Source of the DNA: Negaprion brevirostris
Taxonomy: Eukaryota
NCBI GenBank assembly: GCA_030324005.1
Contig: JARDVH010000132.1
Coordinates: forward strand, 73,930,919-73,994,918
Direction of reading: 5' to 3'
DNA: 64,000 bases
The position numbers and the translations under genes are program-made. Below are positions 2,425 to 59,545 of the stretch, one piece after another; the first letter of the stretch is position 1; each line of letters starts with the position of its first letter. Below the pieces are notes generated by a model that did not search any database, was not told where the DNA came from, and worked only from the letters and a program-made list of their open reading frames with translations.

Positions 2425-2980
2425 ACAAATAACAATAACTTGTATCCAGATGGTAAATGTAACCTAGTAAGATGTCCCAAGGCATTTCACGGCAGCATTA
2501 TAAAACAAAGTATGACACTGAGCCACACAAAGGGAGGTAAGACAGATAGCCAATAGCTTAATTGGCCAAGGAAGTAAGTGTTAAGGAGCATCGTAAAGAT
2601 GGAAAGAGAGATTGAGAGAGAAAAGTTTAGCGAGGGAATTCCAGGACTTAGGACTTAGGCAACTGAAGGCATAACCACCAACGGTTAGCAATTAAAATCA
2701 GGGTATGCCCAAGAGACCAAAACTCTATGGATCGTTTTGAAAGATTGTAGGGCTGGAGGAGTGTACAGAGATAGGGAGGGATTTGAAAATGAAGATGAGA
2801 AATTTAGAAACAAAGTATTGCCTACAGAGGAGCCAATGTGGTCAGCAAGCAGGGGATGTTGTGTGAAGAACATTTGTTGTGAGTTAGGAGATGGACAGCA
2901 GAGTTTTAGATGACCTTAAGTTTACAGAGTGTAGAGTATGGGAGATTGACCAGGAATGTTTTATAATAGTTAAACCTAAA
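2425..2980 (-). mobile_element. L2-type LINE 3' fragment
   Basis: Reverse-complement of the L2 tail (aacaataacttg...gtcccaaggcatttcac...gacactgagccac...gggaattccagg). Confidence 0.55.
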
Positions 2981-3034
2981 GGTAACAAATAAACTGTGCT
3001 ACCGTGGAGTCTGGCAAGGTAATAGCCACTGTGA

Positions 3035-3167
3035 CGTGAATTTTCTGGTTGTACATGCCCCACAGCTGCTGACAGCGAGAACAGAGAATTTGGCACTCAG
3101 CCAAACTTCTTTCACTGTAGTGGGACAGGAGAATCCCAACTGCAAATGAGGTCAGAGAATCTGGCTC
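3035..3167. mobile_element. ~130-bp Harbinger-type MITE
   Basis: Ends gacgtgaattttct...agagaatctggctc. The internal sequence is similar to the MITE at 9305-9440. Confidence 0.55.
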
Positions 3168-3263
3168 ATGTCTCTGCCAGTTTTTAGCTAGAGCAATGAA
3201 AAACAAGTCATGTTGTCCTGCACTATCCCCATGGTCCTGTAGCTTTCTCTACTTTAAATATGT

Positions 3264-3573
3264 GGGCAACACAGTGGTTAGCACTGCTGCCTCATAGCTC
3301 CAGGGACCTGGGATCAATTCCGGCCTTGGATGACTGTCCGTGTGGAGTTTGCACATTTTGCATGGGTTTCCTCCAGGTGCTCCAATTTCCCCCCACAGTC
3401 CAAAGGTTAGATGGATTGCCATACTAAATTGCCCCTTAGCGTCTCAAGATGTGCAGTTTCAATGGATTAGCCATGTGTGGGTTTGCAGGGATAGGGTGAG
3501 GGTGATTGCCTAGATAAAATAGTCAGTGCAGACTCGATGGGCCAAATAGTCTCTTCTGCACTTTAGGAACTCC
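3264..3573 (+). mobile_element. HE1 V-SINE (CR1-type tail)
   Basis: acagtggttagcactgctgcctca...gtggagtttgcac...aaattgccccttag...gcagactcgatgggccaaatagtctcttctgcact. Confidence 0.85.
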
Positions 3574-5967
3574 AAGCTCTATCCTCTCTTTTAAAAAATG
3601 CATTAGTCACTGCCTAAATTAACTTCTGTAGTAGAAGATGCCATACTCTAACAATTATCTTCTTCAAAATAATCTCCTAACCTATTTTCTCACTGAAGTT
3701 CGGGATAACTTTAAGGTGTCAATGATTTCTCAATCAGAGGAAATAAGTAGGATTGATTCATTGGATTGCAGGCATTGTTAGGCACATATTAGGGAGCAAA
3801 AAAACAAGTGAGTAACATGGTTAATGAAAATGTGCTGGAACAACAAGAATATATGTTTCAGTTTCAATTACTAATAGTGCACAAGGTGAATGCACTCCAT
3901 ACTTTAATCTCTGGTGTAATAACAATACAGGACAAGAGATTGACTATACTGGAGGTCACCATGTAGGACTTATCATTAATTGGGCTGCAATGGAATTAAT
4001 AACGAGATAGAACTATTTGGAACCACGACTAGCTGCATTGTCATGAATTCCAGTTCAGTGTGATTGGAAAGATACTGTGACAAGATTAAGGGCATTCTTG
4101 TTTAATTTTAAATCCTAAATCAATAAATTTTTGCCAGGCAAGAGTACAGTCTGACAGAGATATCAAAACAATTGCAATGTTCAATGTCTCCCTCACATCA
4201 TCGTTAGGAAATCAACGTTCTGGGGAGTGACCCTGATGAACTTACACTTACGATCTCCTGGAGACATTAAGATCTCCAGTGAGACACTGCAATACATCCT
4301 GTAACCTGGTACACAGACATTACAGATTTCAACTTGTCCTTCAATCACTATTTTATCACTGGAAGAATGAAGATCAAAAGAATCTTTGATGAAGATTTTG
4401 ATTCATTAGCTATCATCATCTGAAAGTACTAGATTCACTTTCTTCTAATTATAGCTGTTAACACCTCCATGAATAGAGAAGGAGAACTTGATTCCAGCAT
4501 TATATCTAAAGGACAACACTGATAAGAGTGCAACATTTTTATTACAGTTTAGATGACATGTCAGGGACCTTTAGGCTTAACTTGCCAATTTTCTGATGCA
4601 AAGATAAGACTGTTGCCCAATTTATAAGGCTCTTTTCCCTGCAGCATTGTGGGAGCACTTTTATGGACATCAGAGATTCAGGAAATATCCACCACCACTT
4701 TCACCAGGAACAGGGGCAATAAATGACAACCCGATAGCGATACCTACATCCCAAGAGTAAATTAAAAAATGAAATCAAGGTAATGGTCAACGTCAGTCTG
4801 AACCAGTAGTGGACACCCAGGGGCTACATGCAGCCTATCTGAGTTCTGAGGGCAGCCCACAAGACATTCTGTTGACTGTTGCCCACAGTGGAGGGAAATT
4901 TTGAGCCCACACTTGCCATCCTTGCAAATATTGGCGGGGCTCAAGAGTCAGAAGTCACAGTTCTTGCCGTANNNNNNNNNNNNNNNTTACGTCTATAACA
5001 TGATGGCATGAACATGATTGACATGCATCTGAATAGAAATTTATACAATTGACCTGCCCCCTCACCAGATTTGACCCTCTGCCATGTATTGACACCATGT
5101 TGACATGACATTGACACACTTTACAACAGGTTCATCAAGTCATGAACCCATTGTGGGTGTTTCCTCAGGGATGCAAAGGTAAGTATAGCCTTAAGGGAGA
5201 GAAACATGGCCAGGCAGTGGTTTAGAAATGTCTCTGGCACTGCCCCTTGGGAAAGGTTGGCACTACCAAGTTGGCACCATGTTAATCTGGTAAAGACAAG
5301 CTGGCAGTGCCAATCTGTGCCAAGGGGTGGGCCCAATGGGGGGAGGATTCATTTAGATGCGGTGGTGGCTGGGAGCAGAGGGAGGAGCTGGGGGTGCCAC
5401 ATTGGCCTTTTCGGAAGAATGGGGGCGAGGATGGGTTGGAGGTAGGTGCCGGCTTAGACTGTGTGTGTGAGTTGGGGGGCGGTGGAGGTGAAGTGTCTGA
5501 TGATTGGAGGGGATGGGGACAATAATTGGGGGAGGGGGAGAAGGTGCTANNNNNNNNNNNNNNNNNNNNNNCCAGTGATCGAGGTGAGGGGGTGATGATT
5601 GCAGGGGAGTGGATGCAGGGCTGATGATTGGAGATGGGAGTACAGAAGTGCCAACTCGTATCGGGGTAGGGAGCGAAGCCTCTGAGAGCTCAGTGGTGGT
5701 TATATAGGTTATGATTGGAGTGCCGTTAAAAGATGGCACTCCGATCTCCGTGTAGCTGGGTTTCACTGGTGTGTTGAGGCTCCACCCTAATATGACCCCT
5801 TCATTTTTTCCTGGCAGCCTGTCGCAAGATTTGGAGAGAACATGCCAATTTTCTCACTGGAAACAACACTGCCATTTTTTGGTAAGATTTATTCCACTGA
5901 ATTGTCACATTCTGCTGGCTTCCATCCTTGTGACTTTTTCCAGTGGTGTGACTATAGTGATATCCAC

Positions 5968-6385
5968 ATGGAGTGAGGGCCCATGGAGGGAGGGCATGTG
6001 GAGTGTGAGCATTTGGAGTAAGGGTACATCGAGTGAGAGTGTGTGGAGTGAGGGAGTGTGGAGTGAGAGTGCATGGTGCAAGAGTGCATGGAGTGAGAGT
6101 ATGTGGTTTGATAGTACATGGTGTGAGGGCATGTGGAGTGAGACTGCGTGGAGTGAGAGTGCGTGGAGTGAGGGTGCATGAGTAAAGGTGCGTGGAGTGA
6201 GGGTGTGTGGAGTGAGGGTGCATGCAGTGAGAATTCATGGATTGAAGGTGTGTGGAATGAGGGTGTGTGGAGCGAGGGTGTGTGGAGCGAGGGTGTGTGG
6301 AGCGAGGGTGCTGGAGCGAGGGTGCTGGAGCGAGGGTGCTGGAGCGAGGGTGCTGGAGTGAGGGTGCATGGAGTGAGGGTGCATG
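5968..6385. repeat. Degenerate 14-15-bp minisatellite (TGGAGTGAGGGTGYR)n
   Basis: About 28 tandem units. It generates the spurious WSEGV / HPHST / LTPHT repeat ORFs. Confidence 0.92.
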
Positions 6386-9514: not shown

Positions 9515-9811
9515 CATGGTGTCACAGTGATTAGCACTGCTGTCTCACAGCGCCTGGATTCGATTCCCAGCTCAAGTCACTGTCTGTGCAGTGTTTGCAT
9601 GTTCTCCCTGTGTCTGCGTGGGTTTCCTCCTGGTGCCCTGGTTTCTTTCCATAGTCTGATGATGCGTGGGTTAGGTGGATTGGCCATGTTAAATTGCCCC
9701 TTAGTGTCAGGGACTAGCTAGGTTAAATACATGGGGTCATGGAAATAGGGCCTGGATGGGATTGTGGTCGGTAGAGACTCGGTGGGATAAATGACCTCCT
9801 TCTGCATTATG
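9515..9811 (+). mobile_element. HE1 V-SINE
   Basis: cacagtgattagcactgctgtctcacagcgcc...gtgtctgcgtgggtttcctcc...aaattgccccttagtgtc...cctccttctgca. Confidence 0.85.
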
Positions 9812-10444: not shown

Positions 10445-11212
10445 AAAGAACAAAGAACAAAGAAAATTGCAGCATAGGAACAGGTCTTTCGGCCCTCCAA
10501 GCCTGCACCAACAATGCTTCCCGACCTAACTAAAACCCCTTACTCTTCTGGGGACCATATCCCTCTATTCTCATCCTATTCAAGTGTTTGTCAAAATGCC
10601 CCTTAAAAGCCACTACTGTATCTGCTTCCACACCTCCCCCGGCAACGAGTTCTAGGCNNNNNNNNNNNNNNNNNNNNNNNNNNNNNNNNNNNNNNNNNNN
10701 NNNNNNNNNNNNNNNNNNNNNNNNNNNNNNNNNNNNNNNNNNNNNNNNNNNNNNNNNGTAATATTGAAGTTATTTTTGCAACCGGGCCCTATGCTGGTGA
10801 ACAATGCCTGGTGCTATTTCCCCAATAGGAGTGACTCTTCAGAGTAAGTTCACACACACAGGAGCGTAGGAGATAGGAGCAAGAGTAGGCCACTTTACTC
10901 CTCAGGCCCGGTCTGCAATTCAACACAAAGAACAAAGAAAATTCCAGCACAGGAACAGGCCCTTCGGCCCTCCAAGCCTGCACCCACCATGCTCCCGACT
11001 TAACTAAAACCCCCTACCCTTCCGGGCACCCTATCCCTCTATTCCCATCCTATTCATGATATTGCTGAGACACCCCTTAAAAGTCACTGCCGTATCCGCT
11101 TCCACTGCCTCCCCCGGCAATGAGTTCCAGACACCCACTACTCTCTGTGTAAAATATCTGCCTCGTACATCTCTTTTAAACCTTGCCGTTGCACTTTAAA
11201 CCTGTGCCCCAT
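10445..11212 (-). mobile_element. Two CR1 LINE 3' ends of one subfamily (10445-10657 and 10927-11212) plus a short tail fragment
   Basis: Both begin aaagaacaaagaaaatt..agcacaggaacaggcccttcggccctccaagcctgcacc and align to each other over about 200 bp. Confidence 0.75.
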
Positions 11213-12145: not shown

Positions 12146-14589
12146 GTTTGATATTTTTGACAAAGTTTTGTAATAAAAAAGGCAAGACAGTTAATTCTGG
12201 CACCACAGTCGTGAAGGAGGGTCAGGAATGGTCACCCTGATTCATGACTCATACCAGAAGGAGCAGTCATGTGGGAGTTCTAAGCATCTGAGGCACATCG
12301 GGGTCGATGTTTAAAGATAGTTTAAGAGTTGCAACTCGATCATGATGGGGTCTGAGTTGAGATGTGAGAAAAACATATGGTTTTTCCTGCGGTACTCCAT
12401 AGAGACTTTTTATTGATAAGTCATTGTTTCACATTTTGTGTAGCATCATTACACAGTTTAGGAATTTTTTTCTGTTAATATGAATATTTATGGTTGAGCT
12501 TAAAAGCCTGTTGTCTGCGTAAGTTTGCCCTTTATCAAATCCTAAAGTTAAGAACAAATGGTAAGGGTGAACAGGAGCATGCATCTCTGACATATCACCC
12601 AGTTCTATTGCCCATTAGGTGGTTGACAGAGCCAGCTTATTTCTCACTGCTGGGAATATGGTATGGCACCTTTCCTTAAGCCTCCCCTGGCCACTTTGCT
12701 GGTCCCTCACTTCCCAGCCCATCCCCGATCGATTGGGAAAATTCAGCTCACCTCTCCAGGTCAAAATCCATTCTGATGAGAAGAATTAGTCTGAAATGTT
12801 GGACTGAATTTTAATTTGTGGGAGCAGTGGGTTTGGAAGTGGTTGAGGGAAAATTGACAGCTGGCTGCAACATTATTTGACTTCAAGTTGAACTGCAGCA
12901 TGTTAGTCTCAGAGAGGCAGGTTGTCAATTTCAATATGCTAATTGTTCAATTGTAGCAATGTTAACAAAGCATTCGGGAATTTAACTGTGAGCACACAGG
13001 TTTCCTGGACTTGTGGAACTAGCCAGTAACAGGAAGGTGAGAACACAATGGCAATTCAGGAGACTGGGAGGCTGAACACATGGTAGACAAATAATCCAAT
13101 AACTACTGAAATTGCACAACTGCTTTGTTTCTTGCTTGTGTGAGGCTTTGTTCACAGCATTTGTACTGTGAAGTTACTTTGACAACTTTGAAGCTTGCTT
13201 TCACAACTTTGGAGGTTTGTTTGACAACGTTGAATGTCTGTATGTTTGATCTTTGCATTGGAGATCTGATCCGTCAGATCAGCATTTGTGTTTCGGACCC
13301 CCAGATGAGGACAAAGGAGACCAGCAGTATCAACAGCAGCATCAGCAGGGGCACCAGGAGTAGCAACAGCAGTAATACCACAGCTGGAGCAACAGCCAAC
13401 TGCTTGTAGACCTGCCACTCCACAGACAGGAGTGAAGCAAAGAAATACAGCTTACTGGGGCCCCATACCATAACAAAGGGTCTATAAGCAGAGGATAAGC
13501 TTCTTCATGAGTACTTCAGGAGGCTTATATTGTGTATTGGAAAACATGTGCAGCCTTCCGGAATAAGATTTGTTGCCAAATGATTCCGGTGGTCACACTT
13601 TAACAGTGGCTGTCAAAGTCATCAAGTATTTTGCCTCTGAATCCTTTAAGGACAGTTCTGGGGATATTTGCAGATCTTGCCATTGGTGGCCTATAAATGC
13701 ATTAGACAGAGGACTGACAGCTTGTTGACCAGAACAGTTATGTGCAATGATGCCAATCAGAACCATTGTGTATTCATTTTGTTCCTAGTTGGAATAAGGA
13801 CACTTAAGGGAGCAATTAAGTGACGTCCTGATGATGTCATCAGGTTCTTGTGTGGGCAAATGGGCAGTCTCTCCTAACAGCCTAAAAACACCTTTCCAAT
13901 AATGCTCTTGTTCCTTTGTACCTTCATAGCATGCAAGCCAATCCTTTAAAAATACCACAAGAACGAGCAGGCTTTTGGATTCGCAACTGTAAGAGGCATC
14001 CCACTGGTACCTAATATATTCAACTGCACACATGTAACAAGGCATCTCCAGATCACTCAGGAGTCTTCTTCAGCTTCTCAGGCTTCCATTGCATCAATGA
14101 GCAGTCGTTGTGCAACCACAAAACATATGTTTATGGAGCTGTGAACAAGATTACCAGGTAGCTGCTATTATACATTTGTTCTGCAGCAGTTCACCCTCCC
14201 TGATCTCCTTCCACCTCAAAGCAGTCTTACTGACTGGTTGCTTGAGTACAAAGGGTACGCCGTAAAATGTGCCTGATGTTACTGATGACAAGTGACCCTC
14301 AGTGAATGAAGCCCTGGAGCAATCAAATAAAAACCATATGACAACCTTTTGTGTAATTGAGCAAACTATCAGCTTGTGCAGGATGTCCTTCAGGAGAATG
14401 GGCACATCCAAAAGTGTCCTACAAAACACACGAGCTAGCGTCCCCAGAAAGGTCAAGGTGTGCTGTGGTCCATATAACATTGCTCAGCAGAGAGGGTTTT
14501 GACAGGTTAGAAGAAACAAGGCGCAGAGCACAGGGCCTCTAAATTGGGAGGCAGTGGCGCAGTGATATTGTCAATTGACGGGTAATCAT

Positions 14590-14700
14590 GTGGACGTTCT
14601 CCACTCACCTGACGAAGGAACACTGTTCCGAAAGCTTGTGGTATTTACTGTCAAATAAACCTACTGGAATTTAACCTGGTGTTGTGAGACTTCTTACTAA
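14590..14700 (+). mobile_element. Penelope-like element terminal fragment inserted in the tRNA-like head
   Basis: ccactcacctgacgaagg...ccgaaagcttgtg...aataaacc...cctggtgttgtgagacttcttact, the same family as 61763-62275. Flanked by the imperfect direct repeat tgacgggtaatc / tgactggtaacc. Confidence 0.75.
14605..14641 (+). ncRNA. Minimal type-I hammerhead ribozyme motif (Penelope type)
   Basis: cac-CUGACGA-a-GGAAC-acu-GUUCC-GAAA-GCU-U-gug: intact core, stem II, palindromic stem III and a 3-bp stem I. Confidence 0.65.
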
Positions 14701-17699
14701 GATGACTGGTAACCCAGAGACCCAAGATAATGCTCTGAGGACCCGGGTTCAAATCCCACCATGCCAGATGGCGGAATTTAAAAGCTCAATAAACCATCTG
14801 CAATTGACAGCCTAATGATAGCCATGGAACTATTATCGACTGCCATAAAAACCCATCTGGATCATTAATGCCCTTTAGGGAAGAAAACCTTACCCGGTTT
14901 GGTCTACATGTGACTCCAGACCCACAACAACATAGTTGACTCTCAAATGCCCTCTGAAATGGCTTGGCAAACAACAAAGGAAACAAAATGAATGAAAGTG
15001 AACAAACCATACAGCATCAACCTCAGCACGGAAACGACAACAGCAGAGCCCTGTCGACTCTGCAAAGTCCTCCTTATCAACATCTGGTGGTTTGCATCAA
15101 AGTTGAGAGAGTTGTCTCATGGATAGTCAAGCAACAACCTGATATATTCATACTGACAGAATCACAGTTTACCGATAATGTTGCGGACACCACCAGCACC
15201 ATTCCTGGGTATGTCCTGTGTCACCAGCAGGACAGACCAGCAGAGGTGGCACAGTGGTATACAGTCAGGAGGGAGTTGCCCTTGGAGTCCTTAACATTAA
15301 CTGTGAATCCCATGAAGTCTCATGGCAGTAAATCAATCATGGGCAAGGAAAGCTCCTGCTGATTACCATGGAGCATCTCTCCTCAACTGAAGAATCAGTA
15401 CTCCTCCATGTTGAACACCACTTGGGGGAAGCACTGAGGGCACAAAACTTATTCTGGCTGGGAAATTTCAATGTCCTCCAAAAGTGGCTTGGTAGTGCCA
15501 CCACAGACCAAGCTGGCTGGGTCCTAAAGGACATAACTGCTAGACTCGGACAGCAACAGGTGGTGAGGGAACCAACAAGAGGGGAAAACATACTTGACCT
15601 CATCCTCACCAACCTATCTGCTGCCGGTGCATCTGCCCATGACAGCATTGGTAGGAGCGGCCACCGCACAGTCCTTATGGAAATGAAGCCCTTTCTTCAC
15701 ATTGAGGATGCCCTCCAGCATGTTGTGCGGCACTACCACCATCCTAAATGGGATATTCTCCAAACAGAGTGAGCAACTCAAGACTGGGTATCCATGAGGT
15801 GCTGTGGCCAATCAGCAGCTGTATAATTGTACTCAATCACAATCTGTAACCTCATTGACTGGCATATTCCCCATTCTACAAGGCTGAGCATAAGATTGCC
15901 CATTCGTGTCAGGGGGATGAGTAAGGTTAATACATGGTGTTACAGGGGTATGGCCTGAGTGGGATTGGTATAGGTGCAGGCTCAATGGGCTAATCCTTCT
16001 GCATTATAGTGATTATATGATTTAATGAAACATTCAATTGCTCTATTACTGATAAATAGTGGCAGCAGTGTGTACCATTTACAAGATGCACTTGAGGAAC
16101 TCACCAATGTTCCTTAGGCAGCATTTTCCAAATACCACGGTCAGTACCATCAAGAAAGACAAGAACAACAGACACCATGAACACCAACAGCAGAAAGCTC
16201 CCCTCCAAGCCACTTACCATCTTGAGTTGGAAACAAATCATCGTTCCTACTGTCACTGGATCAAAATCTTCTTAGGCACTCCCTACCAGCACTGTGGGTG
16301 TATCTACACCTCAGAGACTGCAGCAGTTCAAGAAAGCAGCTCGCTACCACCTTCTCAAGGGCAACTAGGGATGGGCAATAAATATTGGCTTGCCAGCAAT
16401 GCCCACATCCTGTAAGTGCATTTTAAAAAAAGACAATTCCAAGGAGGGGAAGAGGAAGAGAAAGCAGAACACAATGTGGCTATGGCACCAGCAATGGTGC
16501 ACATTATGGCCTGAGATATATCCTCGTTATTACAAGGTTCACTTAGGGTCCATTGAACATGCAGATACTCCCATTGAACGTTCAGATACAAAAGTCACAT
16601 TCGCATAACCCAATCTTACCCAGAAACAAGGCAGTTCAGCAAACAATCATCCTTTACACAGCCATCCATGGCCCAACATCATTTTATGTCTCACCATACA
16701 TTGCAAGTGAAAGGCATGCTTCCAAAACTGTGCAATGTAGAGAGGTGGAAATAAATGATCCTTCTATGGTCCAAAAATAAAATACAAACTGAACAGTGTA
16801 ACATTGTATAGCAGATTCATGTACTTCCTCGTGTGCAACTGCAAGCTCTTACTTTTCCACTTCCTAATACTCATACATGGTGCAACCCCTATGATTTCAG
16901 CAGAGGTAGAGACAGGCTGCTTACATTCTTACTTGGACAATTGAGATGATCTTGGCCAATGTCCCCCAGGTTTTAGAGCCAGTGATGAATCTACCAAAGA
17001 CTGTTCTGGCTCTATGAGGGCAGATCACCATTCAGAATTTGGGCTAGTGACAGCAGGAGGGCTGGGGAATTTAATATGCCTTTAAGGGATTGCAGCATGG
17101 CATCACTAGAAGGAAGTGCATCTTCAAGTCTTATACTTCTGTATAAATATTGCATGTGCCTAATCACAATAAATGGATTGACAACATTTGAGAGTTTGGT
17201 GCCTTTATATCATTTTTAAAAGATAGCATGGTATGCAGCAGTAGTTTCTTTCAAAAAATATAGTATTCAGCCTGGTAGCAAAATTAAGTACATGTATGAC
17301 ATGATGATTGTGCTACATGGCATAAAAAGATCAGACTGCAGTGGAGTTGCAACTTCAGAGAATGCTGTTATCACAATGTGGGGACGGCACAGAGGAACTC
17401 TGAAGACAGTGCAGAGATAATGTGAAAGCAAAAAATTCATAAGTAACCCTTGTGGTGAGATTGCTGTGCATAGCCTGCCAATTCATGAGAGGGACATTGC
17501 ATCGAGAAGACCAGCATTGGGTTAGCACAGTTGGGAAAGGCAAGTGGCCAGGTTGTAGACCTGATTAATAGCAAACAAGGGAGAGTGAAACAAAAAAGAC
17601 AATGAACCCGTCATAAAAATTCGGCCAGTGAAAGTTGAGATTTTAATGGGTGGAATTTTGGAAACATGTGAAAATGCCTATGGGAACACTAGTGCCAGG

Positions 17700-23356: not shown

Positions 23357-23562
23357 AAATGGTTGATTGGCCTATGCCTGTTCCAATGAGATGCAGGACC
23401 TGACTATTTGCAAGGTAAAAAAGTGATAATATTTGGTTCAGCATTATTTGTATCATTTTAATTTACTTCTGCATCCTGTTCTGTGCATGCTGGTCTTTTA
23501 ACAGTACTCTTGGAATGTCCCCTTCCTCTTGGGCAGGAGTGACTTTGGCACCTCAAAAACTT

Positions 23563-23844
23563 GGCAGCATGGTGGCACAGTGCTTAGCACTGCTGCCTTA
23601 CAGTACCAGGGAGCCGGGTTTAATTCCTGGTTTGGGTCACTACCTGTGTGGAGTTTGCATGTTCTCCCCATGTCTGTGTGGGCTTCCTCCTGGTGCTTCA
23701 TTTTCCTCCAATAATCTGAAAGACATGCTGGTTAGGCGCATTGACCCAGACAGGTGCGATAGTGTGATGACTAGGGGAATTTCACAGTAACTTCATTGCA
23801 GTGTTAATGTAAGCCTTACTTGTGACTAATAAATAAATAAACTT
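23563..23844 (+). mobile_element. HE1-like V-SINE with type-ii tail
   Basis: ggcagcatggtggcacagtgcttagcactgctgcc head and V-domain, tail gactaggggaatttcacagtaacttcattgcagtgttaatgtaagccttacttgtgactaataaataaataaactt. Confidence 0.85.
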
Positions 23845-31778: not shown

Positions 31779-31997
31779 ATAGAGGTCCCTCTCTTACCAA
31801 AGCAATTGCCCAGTGAGTGTAACGACTGGGAGGAGCATTGATTGACTCCATAGAAAAAAAGTAGATTGCTGTTTTCCACTACTGGATTCTAATGGGAAAG
31901 CTCAGCAGTAACTAAACCAATATTTAATTTTCCAAGCTTTGGGTTTTGGGAGTAGAAGCCAATTGTGTTTCCATCGTTGAGGCTTCAGAGTGATACA

Positions 31998-32309
31998 TAG
32001 AATAGAATAGAATCCCTACAGTCGAGAAAGAGGCCATTCTGCCCGTTGAGTCTGCACTGACAACAATTCCACCAAGGCCCTACCCCTGTAACCCCACATA
32101 TTTACGCCACTAATCCCTCTAACTTACGCATCCCAGGACACTAAGGAGCAATTTAGAATGGCCAATGCATTTAACCTGCACATCTTAGGACTATGGAGGA
32201 AACCGGGGCACCTGAAGGAAACCCACGCAGACATGGGGGGAGAACGTGCAAACTTCACACAGATAGTGACCTAAGCCTGGAGCTGTGAGGCAGCAGTGCT
32301 AACCACTGT
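31998..32309 (-). mobile_element. HE1 V-SINE
   Basis: Reverse complement: tagaatccctacag...gggaggaaaccgg...acccacgcagaca...gtgaggcagcagtgctaaccactg. Confidence 0.88.
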
Positions 32310-35300
32310 TTTAGAGGACTTCTTGCTTGCTGTAAAGATCTTAAGTGAAATAAGTTTGAGTAGTTAATAGTGGGCATAAAAGCTCTGTTGATTGATATTA
32401 AATTAGGAATCCGCAGTGTCTGTTATCTGGAAATGTCAGAACAGTTTATTTAGGAAATGAGTATGGTTGGGGAGTTATTGTTCAGTGCTTTATATAAAGC
32501 CATCATTAAAAAATGCTGAGCTGAGAAACAGTGAACTCGAAGTGTAAAGGTTTTCTGTTGACAGTCGTTGTTAAAAGTAAAACTGTTCTATTGCCTAAAT
32601 TGACATCTCTCATTTAACATGAAGTTAAATTAAGGCACCAATGAAGTTATCCTTCATTTAAAATCAATGTTTCACTTACTGATTGCTATGGGATCTTATT
32701 TTGTTAAGCAGGGGAATGAAGTGCATAGTTTTTCAGTCAAGACCTCATTCCCACTGTTAGAAACATCAAAAATTATTGCTCAACAATCTGTTGGAGTTTA
32801 ATCAACTGTACCACACTATTATAAGCATTTCTAAGTTTTCCTGTTTTGGCAAATATGAAAATGCACAATTTAAAATTACTGTCGATCTGATATTCATTGC
32901 TTTGTAGGGAAGCCTGGAACCTGATCTTAAAATCAACTTCCTCTGCACTCCTCCCCATGGCAGCATGAAACACAATAGTCATGTATATAAGTTAAATTAA
33001 TTATCACACAACATGCCTGTGGAGTGTTTGCAAGTCACTTGTCCTGAATACACTGCAATGTTTCTAAACATATCTATTCAGACATAACGGGCAGAATTTC
33101 CTCAGTCCNNNNNNNNNNNNNNNNNNNNNNNNNNNGAGTTGGGCTGGCTCCCTAATGCATTAATTGCTGCCAGAAGGAAACTTTCAAGGGATGGCTGGGA
33201 ATATAATTGGTTGGTCATCCTATGGAGGCAGGCAGCCAGTTAAACTGGCCAAGATCCCAATTCAGGGCAATTTTGCAGTTTCGTTGTCATTTGGCTCCAA
33301 CATGTGCCAGATTAAATAGAGGCAACCTAAATGCAGCAGCTGCAGACACAGAGGTCGGAACCTCCGTGCCTCAATGATAGGCTGAAGACAGGAAAGTCCA
33401 CACTTGCAGCCCAATCAATATTCCCGCAGGAGATTTCCCTCAAATCCGAAGAGCTTATCAGTTTTGGCCTGTACGTAGGCTTGGGCAGCCAAATTTAGTC
33501 TTAAAATCAATCACTTAAATATTGTATTCACTTTAATAGGTAATGTCAAGGAAGTAATTTTATCATGAACATGTAGCTTCCTGCAGCCATTCCATATTCT
33601 GTACTTCATTCTGAATTAACTGCATGTATTGATTTTATATTAGAAGCCAGTCATGCAGCAGATGATTATGAAGTAATGAAACTTGATTAAGTTATAATTA
33701 GTGAGCTGAAGTAATGAACAGGTATAATCGAAAGACTGGATTTTATTTTAAATACTGCATAAACTTGAATGTTTCTGGAAAATGCAGTTAGCAGTTCAGG
33801 CAAATGGATCTTTCTAACTTTTGATAAGCTATAGGACACAATTGCCTGGTTTATTGTTCATAATCTGATCTCATTTCAGAAAATTTCAGATTACTAAGTA
33901 AGGAAGCATTTGTCTTCCATGGGTTTATTTTTTAACACAGCTGTTATTAGTCTATGATGTGATTAAAGTCCAATTAATTTAACTCATCAACAGTTGGAAC
34001 CAATCAATAAACTAAGAGAAGACTGACCTAACATGGCATGATGGCCACTAAAAAGGATCATAACGAGACTTTGTTAGGGTTTGTTGCTAGCCAAGATTTG
34101 AAAACATATGTGTACTAATTATGAGTCAATCTCCACAAGTGAATTCAAGATTGAAGAACAGAGACTTGAGAAAATATGGAAGTAATCAACACTTCAAACA
34201 GATTGTGCAACTAACTGAAGTTGTATGTCACTGTCCAAAAGTTTGATAACTATACCATTTCTGTGGTAAACTTTCTGAATTGCTATCCAAATGCTTTACC
34301 TTTATCAGTTAAGTCATGCATAAACTAAATTAATGTGAATTAATTNNNNNNNNNNNNNNNNNNNNNNNNNNNNNNNNNNNNNNNNNNNNNNNNNNNNNNN
34401 NNNNNNNNNNNNNNNNNNNNNNNNTTGATTTTCATCCACACTTCTGGGAGCACCTCCATTTTGAGGCACTCTCATGCTTCCCAAACTGCCTCAGCAGCAC
34501 CCACCTCTCCCTTCGGGGTGACTGAAGCCCCACAGCTGCCAGTCATGTGACTGATCCTGCAGCATCAAAAGCAAGCTCGTGCAGATGGTCAATTATAAAG
34601 CCACCTCTTGGAACATTGTGTCATTGATCTCACTACCAGCAAGCATGGACTCCCCATTGGGTCTTGATGCAGATGTCCTGAAGCAGTAAATTCCAGCCCC
34701 TTTGCTCATTTAGATATCTCTTGCAAGTTTCTTCTCATACTTCCTTTTTTGTGGCTCTTCTATCTGACTTGTCACTTGTTCTTTGTATCTCTTCCATTTG
34801 TCAGGATCTTCGCTGTGCTATGCATTTTTATATATCTTTTCTTTTTTTTTTTGCATGCTGTTTCTTACCTCATTAAACATTGTCTTTTTTTGTGCCAAAA
34901 AGAGCTCTTGTCTCTTTAGGGCATAAACTGATTTTGTGTCACATTGAGTTTTTTGCTGACATCCCTGGCTAATCTTCTGTGAGTTTATGAATGAACAGAT
35001 TTGGGTAGATAATGTAGTCAACCTCTGTCTCTTCTCAATGAAGTCAGCCTTACCCAATTCTTATTTTATGTTTCCCCCTCTCAAGCACTGCTTTGAGTTT
35101 GATCATATTATAATCATTATTAGACTGACAGTCATGGACTGTTACACTGTTAATAAAATTTGGATCACACCTCACTATGTAATCTAAGTAGAGCATTTAT
35201 ACAGAAGATGGCTTAGCATTTTAAAAGCCCCAGCTTACATCTTACTTGATAGATTATAGATGAATACTTGCCTTCAAATTATTTCATTTAAAATAATTTT

Positions 35301-37474: not shown

Positions 37475-38062
37475 ATATAAATTTGGAGCAGGAGTTGTCC
37501 CATTCAATAGTTGATCAACTTCACTTCCCTGCCTAGCCCCTATACCCTTTGACTCCCTTGTTAGTGAAGAGTCTATCCGCCACTGTCCAAAAATAGTCAA
37601 TGACCCTGCCTACACTACTCTCTCAACAAGTGTCCTACAGACTCATGACTCTTTGAAAGAAAAAAAATCTCCTTATCTCTATTTTAAATGGGAGAACCTT
37701 TATTTTCTAACTATGTATCCTAGTTTTAATCTGTCCTGCAAAGAGCACATCCTTTCAACATCCATCCTGTCAAGTTCCCTCAAGATCCTACAAAATGAGA
37801 ATAATATTCTATAAGAATGTTTTTTCTCTTCTAAACACCAATGGACACAGGCACAACCTATCCAATCTTTCCTCGTAAGATCCCTTATCCCTGGAATCAG
37901 TCAAGTGAAACTTCTCTAAAATGCGTCAAGTACTCCTTTGTTCGTTCTTAAATATGGAGGCCAAAACTGTGCACTAAGTCTCACTAATACCATGTACAAT
38001 TGTGGCACAGCCTCCCTATTTTTATATTCCATTGCAATAAATGGCAATATTCCATTTGCCTT
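37475..38062 (-). mobile_element. CR1 LINE 3' fragment
   Basis: ggagcaggagt...ccattcaata...ggccaaaactgt...ccatttgccttc in reverse orientation. Confidence 0.65.
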
Positions 38063-38699
38063 CAGGAGCTTTTGAAACTCAGCCAAGCATTCATAACCAG
38101 ACAGCTATATTAACAAATCCTGTGATATCTAAATAGTCCATTGAAACTGAAACAAAAAAGGTCCATTTTTCTCTAAGCTACACAGATGTCCTATCAATCA
38201 AAGTAGTCCAGGAACAGTTGTGGACTTGTTCTCAAAATTAAAAACAAAGATTTATTTTCATTTTAAAGGAGCTCTTAGCATCTTGTAGCATTTTGTAGGG
38301 CAAGCTCTATAATCAACCACTGCAGTAAAAACACATCTTACTTATAGTATAGCTAACTTCTGAAACTTAAATAACAGATTTTTCTTATGTTTCAATGAAG
38401 TAATTTGAAGAACAGGCTGTTTTTTTTTAGTTCTCCACTTGGGACTGCAGATTCCCCTGTCATTGCAGTTCCTCTTAGGTGCCTGGATCCACAANNNNNN
38501 NNNNNNNNNNNNNNNNNNNNNNNNNNNNNNNNNNNNNNNNNNNNNNNNNNNNNNNNNNNNNNNNNNNNNNNNNNNNNNNNNNNNNNNNNNNNNNCCTAAC
38601 AAAATGGGTTAATGAAAATAGCCAGGTATCTAAAATGGCCATCCCCACAATGGGATAAACAAGGGTGGAATTGCAGATTTAAAACAAAATCAAGGAACC

Positions 38700-40981
38700 T
38701 GGGCTTTGCTGATTAGGCCAGCATTTATTGCACATCCCTAACTGCCCTTGAGATGATGGCGGTGGACCGACTGTGTTTGTTTACAGACTCAATGGTCTGA
38801 GCGGCTTCCTTCTGTTCCATAATAACCATAATGATTTTAAATGCCAGTGTTGTAAATCTATTTGAACACCTTGGCTAGAGGTGCGACTAACTCTGCAACA
38901 CCAGTCTTTGGTATTAAAGCTGGAATTTTTTGGGCCCATTGCCTTTATTGTATTCCCATTTCTTGATATCATGTGGGCTGAACTGAATTGGCCAAAGACT
39001 GGCATCTGTCATAGTGGGAATCTCAGGAGGAGCCCAAGATGTACCATGTACTCATCCAATCCACATTCTGGCTGAGGATGATTTTAAACACTTCAGCCCT
39101 GTCTTTTGCAATCACGCTGTGGGCTCCACCATTACTGAAGATGGGACTGTTCATGGAGTCTCCTCCTCTTGTTAGGATGCTTAACAGCTCATTGCCATTC
39201 ACTATTAGATATGGCAGGATGATAGAACTTTCATCTGATCCATTGCTTATGTGATCTCTGTCTATGTCGTCATGCTTCCACTGTTAGCATGCATTTAGAT
39301 TTGTATTGTAGCATCACCAGGTTGGTACTTAATTACAAGGTATGCCTGGTATTGCTCCTGGTATGCTTTCCTGCACTCCGCATTGAATTAAAGTTTATCC
39401 ACTGGCTTGATAATAAAGTGAAGGATATGCCGGGATATGTGGTTATAATGGTGGAATACAGTTCTGCTTGACCGGGAAGTCATGTTGTGCAATGGGTAGA
39501 GTCACTCTCTGAGACAGAAGCTCTGGGTTTGAGTCCCACTACAGCATTTGCTGGCTGAAGGCACATTCATAATGTGGCCAAACACCATCAACCTGCAAAT
39601 TCTTCCAATACACCAATGGTAACTGGTCAGCCATTTGATGAAAATAAATTTGGAGCCTCTGCCACCACCATTGAAAAGCTCAACCACATACATGGCACGT
39701 AAAAGTTTATATTGCCACTCCTTAAGTGAACTGTTACAAATACACTCAATTCTACTTCTGTTGATGGCAACTGCAGCCCATGCGTGGTCAGCTTTGAGTG
39801 GCAAGATCCGTTCTGAATTGATCCTATTTAGCATGATGATTGTGTCGAACATGATAAACAGTGTTTTCAGTGTGAAGATAAGATTTTGTTTCCTCAAGGA
39901 CTGTGCCATGATCTATCCAAGCAATGCTATCATGGAGAAATGTACCTGTGACAGATAAATTGGTGAGATTGAGCTCATGTCAGTTTTTCTCTCATGCTGC
40001 TTCTGTTGCCATCTGCTGCAGGCCCAGTCTGGATGATATGTCCTTCAAGACTGAATAGNNNNNNNNNNNNNNNNNNNNNNNNNNNNNNNNNNNNNNNNNN
40101 NNNNNNNNNNNNNNNNNNNNNNNNNNNNNNNNNNNNNNNNNNNNNNNNNNNNNNNNNNTGAATAGCTGGTCAGCAATGCTGCTACCAAGGCATTCTTGTT
40201 GACAGATATTGAAGTCCCTCACCCACTTACATTACATGTCCTTGTTATTCTTAGCGTTGTTTCCAATCAGTTCTCAATATAGATGAGTTCTGATTCATCG
40301 GTTAAGAAAAGGCCGGAGGACTCCTTGTTCACGTTTGATCTGATGACAAGACTTCAGCGAGTCCAAAGTCAATGTTGAGACCTCCCTCTAGACTGTCTAT
40401 CACTGTGTTGATACGTCTGGTTTGGCTATCATGCTGGTGGTGCAGAACCAACCAGGGGATGATAATCGAGGAATCTGGACATTGACTGAATGGCACGATT
40501 CGGTGAGAATAACTATGTCAGGTTGTTGGTTGACCAGTTCTGTTGAACAGCTCTCCCAGATGTTAGTGAGAAATAATTTGCAAGATCAACTGTATAGGTT
40601 GTTCCTATGTAATGTCTGGTGTCTACGTCTATTCAGTTTCATTCCTTTTTGACTTTTCTAGAGGTTTCATACAACTGAATGGCTTACTTGGCTGTTTCAG
40701 AGAGCAGCTATGATCCAACCACATTGGAATCACAGGTAGGTTAGGCCAAGAAAAGACAGAAGACCTCCTTCCTTAAAGGACCTTAAAAAACTAGGTAGGT
40801 TTTTACAATAATCCAGTGGTTTCATGGCCATTTGGCTAACGCTGGTTTATATTGCGTTTTATTTAATTCACTGAATTTAAATTCTTCAACTGCCATGGTG
40901 GGATTTGAATTCATCTCCATGTCATTCGACCAGGTTTCTAGATTGCTAGTCCAGTAAAATAGCCATTATGTTACTGTTCCC
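38700..40981 (-). mobile_element. tRNA-headed LINE, copy 2 (head + endonuclease + tail; most of RT missing)
   Basis: Minus strand gggaacagtaacataatgg...ctggactagcaatc...gaattcaaatcccaccatggcag head. The endonuclease region aligns to 15060-15880 and the tail ctcaagggcagttagggatgtgcaataaatgctggcc lies at 38716-38752. Confidence 0.75.
39469..39746 (+). mobile_element. Unclassified tRNA-like SINE inserted in LINE copy 2
   Basis: B-box-like gggtttgagtccc, flanked by the imperfect direct repeat cagttctgct / caattctact. The LINE sequence is contiguous when the insert is removed. Confidence 0.55.
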
Positions 40982-42721: not shown

Positions 42722-43439
42722 GAGGTCTCTGCTTGGAGCCAATGCTACGGGGAGGGACAGCAGATAAAATAAATTGTTCGCAACTACAAATTTAGACTGA
42801 AAGTACTGAAATGGTGTTGAAAATACTGCTTTTGGTTTTTTGATTTCCTTCTGAATTCAGTGGAATTAATGCTAAGAGGTAAACATGACATATCAGTCAG
42901 CATTTTATTAATGAGAACAAACACACAATTATCTCACGTGAAGCCAGAAAATGTGGGAACGTTTTCAAAAATCAATGGTATTATTTCTAAAAAAAAGGAG
43001 ATTTTCTGCTCCAGTTTAGGTCTAACACTACAGAATTCCCACTGTTTAGCTTAGCATTAAATTGCTTTATTGAAGAATCTACTTTGGCGTCAACATTTTG
43101 TCAAGTTCCACCCTGATCCTACTAAGTTCTATTTAAATTTAAAAGTTTTATAACTTGGACATAGAGCATTCAAACGAGGCAATTAAACCAGATGGAGGAT
43201 GCTGCATCTACACTGAGTGTTTCCCCCACATGTATAATTATTGTTAGTTATATTGTTTGGTCAGAGTGAATGCCTCAGGAGCATGGATAAGCTAACACAC
43301 TCAACATACACATACGCCTGACCATAAAGTGGAGTTGTACATTGTAAACAAAATAGGCGCCATGACAGAGTCAATGCCCAATAAACATAAAAGCCGTGAT
43401 TCTGAACGAACAGATCTAAATTTGGAGCTGATGCTAATA

Positions 43440-43790
43440 CACAATGGTTAGCACTGCTGCCTCACAGCATCAGGGACCTGGGTTTAATTCCAGCCTCAGG
43501 TGACTGTCTGTGTGGAGTTTGCACATTGTCCCCATGTCTGTGTGGGTTTCCTCTGGGTGCTCCGGTTTCCTCCCACAGTCCGAAAATGTGCAGGTTAAGT
43601 GGATTCGCAATGTTAAATTGCCCCTTAATTCCCCAAGATGTGTTGGTTAGATGGGTTAGCCATGATAAATGTGTGGGGTTACAGGGATAGGGCAGGGTGG
43701 TGGGCCTGGGTAAGATAATTTGTCAGAGAACGGGTGCAGACTTGATGGGCCGAATGGCCTCGTTTTGAACTGTAGGGATTCTATGATTCA
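43440..43790 (+). mobile_element. HE1 V-SINE
   Basis: Near-complete copy ending gggccgaatggcctc...ctgtagggattctatgattc. Confidence 0.9.
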
Positions 43791-47309: not shown

Positions 47310-47560
47310 AATATCTTTGCAATGTGTATTTTTTTAATATCACAATGTTAAATGGTCCAAACCTACACCTGCAGTTGTCATATTCAATTCATCTCAAAAG
47401 TAATGTGGAAAAAGTCTTTGCTACCATCCTGGAGATGAGCAAAACCTTCTTGTTCTGTAGTTTGTTCAGAAGTGGCCACATCTATGCAGCTAAAATCCCC
47501 AGGTAGTTTAAAGCCACTCATTCAACTTGACAAAATCAGTGAACAGAAATAAAAGAGTGA

Positions 47561-47718
47561 ATCACAGAATCCCAACAGTGCAGAAGGAGGCCACTCGGCC
47601 CATCGAGTCTGCACTGAGCACAATCCCACCCAGACCCTAGTCCCATAACCCCATTTATTTACCCTACCACTGAAGGGTAATTTAACATAGCCAAACAACC
47701 TACCTGCACATCTTTGGA
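47561..47718 (-). mobile_element. HE1 SINE 3' fragment
   Basis: agaatcccaacagtgcagaaggaggccactcggcccatcgagtctgcac...cctgcacatctttgga. Confidence 0.8.
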
Positions 47719-48944: not shown

Positions 48945-50038
48945 NNNNNNNNNNNNNNNNNNNNNNNNNNNNNNNNNNNNNNNNNNNNNNNNNNNNNNNN
49001 NNNNNNNNNNNNNNNNNNNNNNNNNNNNNNNNNNNNNNNNNNNNNNNNNNNNNNNNNNNNNNNNNNNNNNNNNNNNNNNNNNNNNNNNNNNNNNNNNNNN
49101 NNNNNNNNNNNNNNNNNNNNNNNNNNNNNNNNNNNNNNNNNNNNNNNNNNNNNNNNNNNNNNNNNNNNNNNNNNNNNNNNNNNNNNNNNNNNNNNNNNNN
49201 NNNNNNNNNNNNNNNNNNNNNNNNNNNNNNNNNNNNNNNNNNNNNNNNNNNNNNNNNNNNNNNNNNNNNNNNNNNNNNNNNNNNNNNNNNNNNNNNNNNN
49301 NNNNNNNNNNNNNNNNNNNNNNNNNNNNNNNNNNNNNNNNNNNNNNNNNNNNNNNNNNNNNNNNNNNNNNNNNNNNNNNNNNNNNNNNNNNNNNNNNNNN
49401 NNNNNNNNNNNNNNNNNNNNNNNNNNNNNNNNNNNNNNNNNNNNNNNNNNNNNNNNNNNNNNNNNNNNNNNNNNNNNNAAAGCAGGGCCGAGGCTGGGGG
49501 CTCTGCAGTGAATGACTGAAATCTTGACCCCTCTCCACAATTTACGAGTTTCAAACCTGAACTATGATAGAACACACTCCACTCACCTGTTTGAGTGTAG
49601 ATGCACCAGCATTCAGATAGCTCAACATTATCCAGGTCAATGCAATCCATTTGACTGCGCTCTAAGTTCAATATCAACAGCTCTCTACCATTAGCCCACT
49701 GTGCCTTCAATATGCACTTTAACATGCTACACTGCAATGAATCACCAAAGTTATTCTGACAATATTTTGTGGCATGTGATTTCCATAACCGAGAAGACTG
49801 AGAGCAGTAATATCATGGGAACACCATCACCTTCATTCACATCACATACCTGACATAGACATGTTTCGCTGTTCCTTCATTGTCACTAGGACCGTATCTG
49901 GGAATTTCTGTGTCACATCATTGTGGGCACATTTAAACCATAAATATAGCGATGGTTCAAGGAGAAGGTCAAATAAGTCACTTGCACAGGACTACTAGGA
50001 ATGGGCAATAAATGTGGCCATGACAGTATCTCACATAT

Positions 50039-50360
50039 GGGCAGCATGGTGGCATAGTGGTTAGCACTGCTGTCTCACAGCACCACGGACTCGAGTTTCA
50101 TTCCTGGCTTGGGTCACTAACTCTGTGAAGTTTGCACATTCCCCCCGTGTCTGCATGGGTTTCTTCCGCATGCTCTGGTTTTCTCCCACAATCTAAACAT
50201 GTGTGGGTTGGGTTGATTGGCCATGCTAAATTGCTCTTAGTATCAGGGAGACTAACAGGGTAAATTTGTGTGGCAGTGGGGATGGGGTTGTTGTTGGTGC
50301 AGGCTTGATGAGCCAAATGGCCTCCTTCTGCACAGTAGGGATTCTATGATTCTTCTATGA
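50039..50360 (+). mobile_element. HE1 V-SINE
   Basis: gggcagcatggtggcatagtggttagcactgc...tggcctccttctgcacagtagggattctatgattc. Confidence 0.9.
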
Positions 50361-51301
50361 TATCCTGGCAACAAGTATTTAAAAGAAGCTACTTTTAGAA
50401 CATGAACTAAATCTGCCACAGAAATGTTCAGGATGTAATTTTAAAATAATGGTCGCATATTAACTCTGCAAATGTAACAGAAAACTAAATATATATATAT
50501 AGTAAATTTTTGAATTTCTTTTAGGAAATACCATGAATTACAAGATATTTCAAAGAAAGGAAGAACCAATTTGTATTTGCATATGGTTTTTCACAATGTC
50601 AACAGGTCCTCAAAAGTTTCATAACTATTAATGTACTAAAGCGGAGTAATTTTATAATGTTGTAAATGCAGCAACTAATTCGTAAACAGCAAACTCTCAC
50701 AAACAGCCAGAAAATGCCCTAGAAATTAAGTTCGATTAGACCCTTTTTTCTCCATTTTCTCCTCCTCCCCTTGGACTTAACTAAAGGCCATAGCCAGCAA
50801 TGCAGCCAGGCCAAGCTGGAGAATCATAAGCAGGCAGCTTGCCTCCAGTAGTGAAAGAGATCTGCTACTGCTCAATTATTTTACAGTGAAGGCAATTTCA
50901 GATGCATCTCAGGCCATGGCTCCATGCCCGGAGCAGACCAAATATTTTGCTAAGAATTACTCAGCCACTCTGTTTTTGGCGATGTTGCTTGAGAGTTAAA
51001 TGTTGGTGNNNNNNNNNNNNNNNTAGGGCATTGCTTTAATATCTCAGCTGAAAGGTGGCACCTCTGAGAGCATAGCATTCCTTAGTACCGTTCAGAAGTG
51101 CCAGCCTGCATTATGTGTTCAAGTCTCAATTCCATCATTCAACATTTTTATTTGTGATTAGAAGTGCGGGATTAATTTTCCTGCACTTCTAATCACCATA
51201 TTCCATTAACCTCTTCTTCACTCCCTAAATCCCTAATCTCCCTTTGCCGATCAGGTGTCCTGTTTCTTTTTACTATAGATGTGCTGTCAGTGGAAACCCA
51301 C

Positions 51302-51471: not shown

Positions 51472-52724
51472 CTGTGGAAACAGAAGCCACCTTGTTGCAT
51501 TAACAAGATGAACCAGTCCAAGTTTCATGTTTTTCACAAATCAGCACTGGGTCTCAATCTGGATTGAAACAGTCAAGCCTTGTTCTCCTGCCTGGCCTCC
51601 TATTTTGCACGCTCCAAGCACTTGAACATATTTACAACTCATAAGTTTGTGTTCTAACTCGCACCAAGAATGGCTCAGCCAACACTCCTGAACTTATTGA
51701 CCTTCACTAGTTCCCAGTGCAATGACCCCCTGATTTCAAATCTGTCCATGACTTTGTCCCTTTCCATTTCTGTATCCTCTCCACTAAACAACCCTCTGTG
51801 ATTTCTACACTCCTCCAATTCTAGTCTCTTGCACCTCTGTGATTGTCACCACTCTGTTAATGGCTGTGCCTTCAGCTGCCCAGGTCCTCTCTAAAACCCT
51901 CCACCTCTCTCCTTCTTTAAAATTCTGCTTAAGACCCATAACTGACCAAGCCTTTGGTCCCTTGCCTTACAATGTGGCTTATTATCAAATTTGTCTGTTA
52001 AGGCCTGTGTGGCATGTGACAAAGTTAACAGTGCTATATAAATACAAATTGCTGTATACTGCCATTGTTCCTCGAAGATTTGATTTCAAAACTTAAGAGA
52101 CGAAAGCGTCTTTGTGGCAGCTGCAGAGGGTGTAAACTGACTTTTCATTGGATGCGTATCCACACCGTAAAACTGTCTATAATTACAAGCTGGATTAACC
52201 TAAATTGGAAAAGACTTATGGTGACTGACAATGGAACACTGGAAAGGTTGGAGTGGGACAGTATTAAAGAGTGCAGAAAAAATGCCTAGCAAGAGCTTTG
52301 CTCTGCATCTAATTCCTATGGCATTATCACTAACTTCAGAATGTTTGATTTTAAAGTTAGATGAAAAGGTTACACAGAAATTTAACATAGAAAGATCCAT
52401 GCAGTGACACATGTGTTTGGACACACACATGCATTCACAAACATATGCAACACTACCAAAATTCTCAAGGGACTCGAAAGGCCCCTTAACCTTTAACTTG
52501 TATGAGGAAACTTTTACCACAGATTATTTCAATGGATGTATTCTTGGTGTTGAGAGCAAATCTATCAGGAAACCTATCAGCTAAATATTTGCGAATTCAG
52601 CCAGATAACAAAATGCATAAATTTACATATAATTTTTTTATATACACATCTGCAGCCAATTATATGACTATTATCTGGGACAGCTTGTTGCATGACCATT
52701 ATAGCATCAAAATCTCAACTCATA

Positions 52725-54078: not shown

Positions 54079-54574
54079 TTTTTGAAAAGCCTACAAATTT
54101 CATTTTGGAATCACATTGTTGATTTTACTATATTCGAAGGTGCTGGTTTGGGAGTAATTTTACAAGGCTTTTCTTCCAATAGAAAGTCTGCCTGGTAGCA
54201 AGGAAAAGCAGAATTGAAGATGTGGCTGGACCACTGGCGCTCCCATTCCCTGGAAAGGAAGGTTCCGTGCTGAGAATGGATTACCCACAATTCTGCACAC
54301 ATTCAGGGAATTCACAATTTGCCACATTGCTTGTTTGCGTCAGACCCTCTTTTTCGAGAGAGCACTGGACAGTTAATACTAAAAACAAGGCATATTTTGT
54401 CACTTAACTGGGGTTCACTCCAAGACTTGAAGCACTGAAGCTAAGCTGTGAAATTGTGATTTGTGAACACTTAATTGAAGGCATCCTTAAATTTTCCATT
54501 GAGCTAGGTTAGCACATAACTTCTGAGTGTAAAATAAGAGAAATTCAAATTTCAGCTGATGCATTAAGAGTTTA

Positions 54575-59261: not shown

Positions 59262-59545
59262 TTCAATGAATAAATCTTGAATTAAAGCTAATCTCAGTAA
59301 AGGTGACCATGAAACCAATATCAATCATTGTAAAAACCCATCTGGTTCACTAACATGTTTCAGGGAAGGAAATCTGCCGTCCTCACCCGGTCTGGCCTAC
59401 ATGTGACCCTTGACCCACAGCAAAGTGGTTGACCCTTAACTGGCTTCGAAGTGGCCTAGCAAGCCACTCAGCTCAATTTGCAATGGGCACAAATGTTGGA
59501 TCAGCCAGCGCTACCTACATCCCATAAAAGAATGAAGATAAAAAG
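59262..59545 (+). mobile_element. Short non-autonomous derivative of the tRNA-headed LINE (5' body joined directly to the 3' tail)
   Basis: aaaacccatctggttcactaa...agggaagg...ggtctggcctacatgtgac...tggcctagcaag aligns to 14850-14970 and is followed immediately by the tail atgggcacaaatgttgg...gccagc...acatccc + A-rich end. Confidence 0.75.

Follow-up and report, generated by a model that had tools for sequence, protein, structure and literature searches.

A tRNA-like head at the 5' end of an elasmobranch Zenon retrotransposon: architecture, ancestry and possible promoter function

Long interspersed nuclear elements (LINEs) are taken as RNA polymerase II (Pol II) elements, and tRNA heads as the mark of non-coding short interspersed nuclear elements (SINEs). 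A coding LINE with such a head, which blurs this line, was noticed in a 64,000-nt stretch of the Negaprion brevirostris assembly (GenBank GCA_030324005.1, contig JARDVH010000132.1, positions 73,930,919–73,994,918, forward strand; hereafter the window). The locus raises the question of whether the tRNA-like head belongs to the element, and whether it drives its transcription by RNA polymerase III (Pol III). A preliminary description of the window had proposed both, together with a SINE-like partner that arose by internal deletion. It was found that the element is the elasmobranch lineage of Zenon (CR1 group), a ∼3.3-kb non-LTR retrotransposon whose single open reading frame (ORF) encodes an endonuclease (EN) and a reverse transcriptase (RT), and that the order of head, body and EN is almost certainly genuine element structure.

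Architecture of the headed copies and the RT half

The 64 kb of the window are draft sequence, rich in repeats and including 2811 N. Copy 1 (14546–16431, plus strand) and copy 2 (40981–38680, minus strand) have the same starting base and a tRNA-like head, and in both the head, a common body, a linker and the EN follow each other colinearly. Their parts are given below, with profile positions referring to a coding profile built from 23 relatives.

14546–14770, plus: tRNA-like head of copy 1, in two parts (14546–14587 and 14715–14770) with a nested insert between; homology with copy 2 from the first base
14555–14565, plus: Pol III A-box-like motif of copy 1, 9 nt from the 5' end
14588–14702, plus: nested repeat of 115 bp that has a hammerhead-like core and is flanked by a target duplication of 12 bp; two other copies in the window
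14746–14756, plus: Pol III B box of copy 1 by motif match, within a T-arm-like hairpin (14745–14757)
14771–14965, plus: body of copy 1, the remainder of the leader, common to copy 2 and to a short element (65–74% identity)
14966–15880, plus: linker of copy 1, ATG (14992), APE endonuclease and start of the EN-RT linker; profile positions 34–296, with frameshifts and stops
15880–16040, plus: nested 3' fragment of an abundant V-SINE-like repeat, located where copy 1 is internally deleted; matches seven other copies
16045–16431, plus: C-terminus of the copy 1 ORF (stop 16366–16368) and 3' untranslated region (UTR), with AATAAA at 16377, T4 at 16421 and an A7 tail
38680–40981, minus: copy 2, with head, body, linker (ATG 40642), EN and EN-RT linker, then the tail; without RT

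The positions proposed earlier for the A box (14555) and the B box (14746) were recovered by motif search. The B box at 14746–14756 was the sole perfect match on both strands of the 64 kb (0.41 expected by chance), and none of 100 simulated windows had a perfect B box with an A box 25–75 nt upstream. In copy 1 the A box lies 191 nt upstream of the B box, or 64 nt with the insert discounted; the 5' end of the element carries A and B boxes at a workable spacing, as in a tRNA-derived type-2 Pol III head. The insert, which we take to be a Penelope-like repeat, is flanked by a duplication of 12 bp (14576–14587 and 14703–14714, 10 of 12 positions identical). The T-arm-like hairpin of copy 1 weakly matched (E = 4) the T arm in the tmRNA model.

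The start of the element is sharp. The first 42 nt of copy 2 aligned with copy 1, and none of 1000 random stretches scored as high, whereas the 42 nt upstream of copy 2 gave no alignment with copy 1 (388 of 1000 random stretches reached the score). Both headed copies begin 8–9 nt before the A box, the homology ends at that start, and the two are 62–67% identical across head, body and EN. Up to the nearest ATG the leader measures 319 nt in copy 1, with the insert discounted, and 339 nt in copy 2, which is too short for an ORF1, as had been proposed for this junction. The two endonuclease motifs of copy 1 sit in frames starting at 14941 and 14940. Copy 1 then jumps from profile position 296 to 842, its second piece covering 842–928 with the RT absent, and copy 2 reads in translation through EN and linker before jumping to the tail just before the RT.

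It had also been claimed that the opposite-strand copy is independent. The 1-kb flanks of copies 1 and 2 bear no relation to each other (score reached by 16 of 50 and 36 of 50 shuffles) and the copies differ in nested inserts and deletion breakpoints, so the two are independent insertions and not the products of one segmental duplication. Copy 2 contains a 100-N gap (40059–40158) and a nested SINE-like insert at ∼39475–39730. No convincing target-site duplications were found around the copies, the best being 8 bp at copy 2 and not flush with its 5' end. The insert in copy 2 (39475–39730, plus) is itself a different tRNA-head SINE-like sequence in opposite orientation, of which no second copy occurs in the window; its head is loosely like that of SacSINE1 as printed in the supplement of PMC5786205.

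Three further pieces cover the 3' half of the element:

52712–54084, plus: copy 3, a 5'-truncated RT half with tail; RT at 52712–54016, profile positions 504–949
49501–50035, plus: copy 5, an older 3' fragment beside an N gap
4622–4770, plus: copy 6, a short 3' end fragment with A6

The RT half that had been ascribed to the family was therefore recovered in copy 3. Together the pieces in the window tile profile positions 34–296 and 504–949, and the translation of copy 2 spans the linker; the Pfam matches of the decayed pieces were below cut-off. The combined pieces make up one ORF with an APE endonuclease and an RT and without ORF1, as in Zenon. Poly-A tails were observed in copy 1 (A7), copy 6 (A6), the short element (A5) and copy 3 (A4), and none in copies 2 and 5.

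Family identity and ancestry

An initial protein search returned one distant match only. Protein searches then gave EN-RT relatives of ∼930–1000 aa, many of them on contigs of 3–4 kb. In a tree of 66 of 149 RT rows, none of them a labelled Zenon, the RT of copy 3 fell inside a clade (support 0.998) that excluded ORF1-bearing relatives; its position within the clade had a support of 0.32.

PMC13343379 describes Zenon from sharks, rays, coelacanth and hagfish, where it invariably lacks ORF1 and ends in poly-A, and states that elasmobranch Zenon was previously in no repeat repository. The caution that the element might be already catalogued was justified, and the description of its long form as a single-ORF EN-RT LINE agrees with shark and ray Zenon. 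Ten Zenon consensus rows of the PMC13343379 supplement were compared by eye over their first 400 characters. All seven elasmobranch rows (five species, 2886–3314 characters, with sequences of 3244–3314 characters from five shark and ray species among them) start with the head and body found in the window, which supports the view that the head belongs to the element. The likeness of these consensus sequences (CarCar, RhiTyp, ScyCan, HypSab and SquAca) to the window copies extends by eye over head, body, linker and EN start, and they share the lack of ORF1 and the poly-A tail. By eye, the A box starts at nt 6–11 in seven of seven rows and the B-box core is intact in six of seven, with an inter-box spacer that varies among species. 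A 12-nt body motif matched six rows of the supplement, all elasmobranch Zenon. An in-frame ATG is present in both window copies and in SquAca-2, and the ATG of the HypSab consensus is out of frame (by eye). Intact ORFs are rare among elasmobranch Zenon copies (0 of 2313, 1 of 1419 in RhiTyp and 3 of 612 in HypSab; PMC13343379).

Two side observations were made by eye on these rows. Two subfamilies seem to coexist in the window, copy 1 being of the CarCar/RhiTyp/ScyCan type, and copy 2 and the short element of the SquAca type. In the head of copy 2 (40957–40920, minus) the stretch between the boxes resembles two similar hairpin arms in tandem; this appearance is clearest in the SquAca rows and may explain the long box spacing.

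The available parts of PMC13343379 mention no tRNA, polymerase, promoter, non-autonomous form or deletion, and the head and the short derivative are undescribed there. In the openly accessible literature (Repbase and Dfam lying outside this scope), no earlier account of an autonomous LINE with a tRNA head, or of the head of shark Zenon, was found, except for one sentence in PMC5786205 by which RTE-1_DAn, a LINE of a clade other than Zenon, contains tRNA-like sequence. An A/B-box head on a long coding element appears unreported, while the family itself is already catalogued as Zenon.

Is the lack of ORF1 as new as the head? A scan of genome contigs for relatives gave 71 loci (L001–L071), apparently LINEs of host origin within metagenome bins. 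Thirty of them included the start of the EN with 1 kb or more of sequence before it; 23 were close and 7 distant relatives, and many of the 23 belong to a sister group with a longer C-terminus. A separate ORF of more than 107 aa ending at most 600 nt from the EN was found in none of the 23 close relatives, and ORFs of at least 299 aa lay upstream in five of the seven distant ones. Because none of the close relatives has ORF1, its lack in the shark element is the ordinary, inherited Zenon state. The lack may not be universal in Zenon, since, according to two papers on bivalves, CR1-Zenon elements are longer there and most reconstructed LINE partners have an ORF1. Lepidopteran Zenon is ∼3.3 kb with one ORF, and in Zenon-1_Hmel (PMC6740152 supplement) this ORF follows a leader of ∼245 nt; its EN motifs and C-terminal residues are like those of the window element (by eye).

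The head behaved differently. Neither a pair of A and B boxes nor a tRNA was found upstream of the EN in any of the 23 close relatives, head plus body had no match among the 71 loci (best E = 7.6), a body motif scan of the genome-contig collection gave no matches, and the head was absent from the 5' ends of the three hagfish and coelacanth rows of PMC13343379. Without a match in the 71 loci or these three rows, the head is elasmobranch-specific within the sample. Many GTDB metagenome bins, especially symbiont bins, were seen to hold whole contigs encoding eukaryote-type LINEs, which are probably host contamination.

Possible promoter function of the head and origin of the short element

According to the mechanism proposed here, Zenon would have gained the head before the split of sharks and rays, via template switching onto a tRNA-derived RNA. 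The A and B boxes would act as an internal type-2 Pol III promoter, which sets the first base of the RNA and is copied with every full-length insertion. The leader has 9–10 ATGs in the decayed copies, so simple cap scanning seems unlikely under either polymerase; because of these many upstream AUGs it is proposed that the ORF may be reached by internal initiation. The protein would recognise the 3' tail and insert the element by target-primed reverse transcription, both of which are established for this class of element. A deletion from the body end to the last codons would then leave a short leader-plus-tail element, a ready-made SINE if the head was kept.

Several observations count for Pol III. 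The long form starts at the +1 position of the tRNA, and the boxes are conserved beside a variable spacer. TTTT was not found in the first 400 nt of any of the seven elasmobranch consensus rows, which are not independent of each other. Of nine runs of T4 or longer counted in the window copies, six are private to one copy where another overlaps, and every one of 31 headless relatives contains T4 (median 5.8 per kb vs 1.7 in the window element). Judged from sequence, the claim that Pol III makes the full-length long RNA comes near to an even matter, with the balance tipping slightly towards doubt. In the joint reading, Pol III would have transcribed an abundant LINE end to end over all shark and ray history, using a promoter captured from a tRNA; the 3.3-kb RNA, lacking a cap, would be translated by internal entry at the conserved body, and one deletion would suffice to give a complete SINE. 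This reading is unlikely to hold in every part.

Other results weigh against Pol III transcription of the long RNA or are neutral. No single window copy has head, EN and RT together, both headed copies being without RT, and no copy runs continuously from head to RT inside the window. The expected shortage of TTTT terminators did not materialise in the decayed window copies, where nine runs of T4 or longer were counted against 11.9 expected from dinucleotide shuffles (P = 0.21; extreme 3' ends and copy 6, with two private runs, excluded). One T4 column is common to two of three copies (16124 and 49765), and the run at 53113 cannot be checked against another copy. The comparison of T4 runs with the headless relatives is confounded because most relatives are T-richer (mostly 0.27–0.36). 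Neither Rfam nor ARAGORN made a formal tRNA call on the head at normal thresholds in these decayed copies. AATAAA lies 40–45 nt before the end in five of six copies, in agreement with ordinary processing of Pol II transcripts. Abundant short copies could have biased the published 5' consensus. Moreover, Pol III RNA is uncapped and poorly translated.

Other candidate signals were set aside. Terminal T4–T5 runs (three of six copies, P ∼0.03, post hoc) were given little weight as a Pol III terminator, because similar ends, T2–T3 plus poly-A, occur in the headless relatives L001, L002 and L036. Relaxed ARAGORN settings gave 37 tRNA calls in the window, which were regarded as noise. Neither ARAGORN nor Rfam found a recognisable cloverleaf or a parent tRNA for the head of the decayed copies, and no ribozyme or other Rfam family was found in the leader. 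The body gave no folding signal (z of –1.4 and +1.4).

The alternative that survives best is that the head is a Pol III promoter for the short element only, the long RNA being made by Pol II from a leader promoter or by read-through, with the boxes persisting by inheritance or by exchange with short copies. The AATAAA signals and A tails, the undepleted T4 runs and the shared T4 column agree with this explanation, as do the internal Pol II promoter in some B2 SINEs (PMC7778262) and the opinion of Kojima 2018 (PMC5786205) that bipartite LINEs are Pol II products. It does not readily account for the start of the long form at tRNA +1 in both window copies and all seven consensus rows, or for boxes retained while the spacer changes, and we regard it as plausible without being probable.

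The short element, present in the window as a single copy, bears on the origin of both forms:

59224–59545, plus: short element, in which the body leads directly into the last codons and 3' UTR; A and B boxes not recognisable

Its body is 68–74% identical to those of the long copies, and the score of its tail was reached by 0 of 200 shuffles against copy 1, 1 of 200 against copy 2 and 11 of 200 against copy 3. It had been described as a SINE-like derivative: the union of body and LINE-derived 3' tail, as in SINE2, stood, whereas a head was not recovered, as no A or B box was recognisable and 56 of 200 shuffles matched its upstream part equally well. The short element begins around or after the B-box position and is probably 5'-truncated; no convincing target duplication was found for it. 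Headed short forms may be abundant in shark genomes.

The short element follows the plan of Persaeus (PMC6740152), which joins the Zenon 5' UTR to the ORF end and 3' UTR of its partner with short breakpoint repeats; at the shark junction, a few bases are likewise shared on both sides. In contrast to Persaeus, which is without tRNA homology or a Pol III promoter, the shark parent carries A and B boxes in its leader. Bov-tA, AfroSINE and CoeSINE4 (PMC5786205) also combine a tRNA head with the 5' part and 3' end of a LINE, but there the head is on the non-autonomous form and the LINEs are RTE or Vingi, whereas in the shark case it is on the coding CR1-group element. ZenoSINE and the bivalve SINEs mobilised by CR1-Zenon have Zenon tails, and only the tail is common with the LINE. 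As identities for the body, SacSINE1/Deu, Meta and UCON3 were rejected by eye against printed sequences (PMC5786205, PMC4824008, PMC7245038). V-SINE was rejected too, since the body had no match to the V-SINE-like copies of the window and the heads are alike at box level only.

A Zenon cDNA might instead have switched template onto a pre-existing tRNA SINE with a borrowed Zenon tail, the short element being the donor. Such an origin, which is compatible with either polymerase, matches the normal SINE plan, module exchange between SINEs is common (PMC5499810, PMC7245038), and the lack of a head or body match in the 71 loci means that the body is untraceable to other Zenon leaders. The switch must, however, land exactly at the body–tail boundary, and no tail remnant was found after the body in the long leader (23, 153 and 155 of 200 shuffles reached the score); furthermore, Zenon deletion derivatives recur in moths and butterflies (PMC6740152). 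This order of events is conceivable but rather doubtful. Because the long leader is without a tail remnant, internal deletion is favoured over capture of a finished SINE, and the short form, known from one copy, probably arose in that way.

Were the joint reading true, the head, body and tail of a SINE would all be directly traceable to a single LINE. SINE bodies have so far been traced only to RTE and Vingi 5' UTRs (PMC5786205); the CR1 group would be added as a source, together with a head-first route. With its head kept across sharks and rays, the element is a clean test of whether Pol III drives an autonomous retrotransposon, and shark repeat annotation will confuse the short and long forms.

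An RNA processing signal is an improbable explanation of the head. RNase P-type cleavage of host read-through transcripts would set the 5' end, in keeping with its precision, with a copy 2 head that folds slightly better than shuffles (z –2.1) and with the ribozyme-defined ends of other single-ORF LINEs (self-cleaving ribozymes of R2, RTE and Ingi; Kojima 2018, PMC5786205), but the acceptor stem is poor, no tRNA model fits and the boxes look better kept than the cloverleaf. A chance SINE insertion beside LINE fragments, a segmental duplication or an assembly artefact is hardly credible despite the draft assembly with its many N gaps, one within copy 2, given the unrelated flanks, a head-to-EN stretch contiguous on one side of that gap and the same junction in published consensus sequences from five species.

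Other repeats in the window

The Penelope-like repeat nested in the head of copy 1 recurs as an inverted pair across an N gap (61756–61872, minus, and 62161–62273, plus), one copy of which keeps the hammerhead-like core. The abundant repeat, presumably V-SINE/HE1-like, has ∼9 copies (1203–1507, 3269–3567, 9515–9806, 23554–23844, 31992–32312, 43439–43790, 47559–47718, 50038–50364 and 59648–59963); one abuts the 3' end of copy 5 and another follows the short element at a distance of ∼100 bp. Repeats that are nearly identical and lie next to N gaps (10450–10655/10925–11130 and 37073–37148/48868–48943) are possibly assembly overlap artefacts. Fragments of another CR1-like LINE (597–856; 11052–11183 and 37644–38128, both minus) served as T-run controls only, and a tandem array of ∼25 copies with a 15-bp period occupies 5968–6385.

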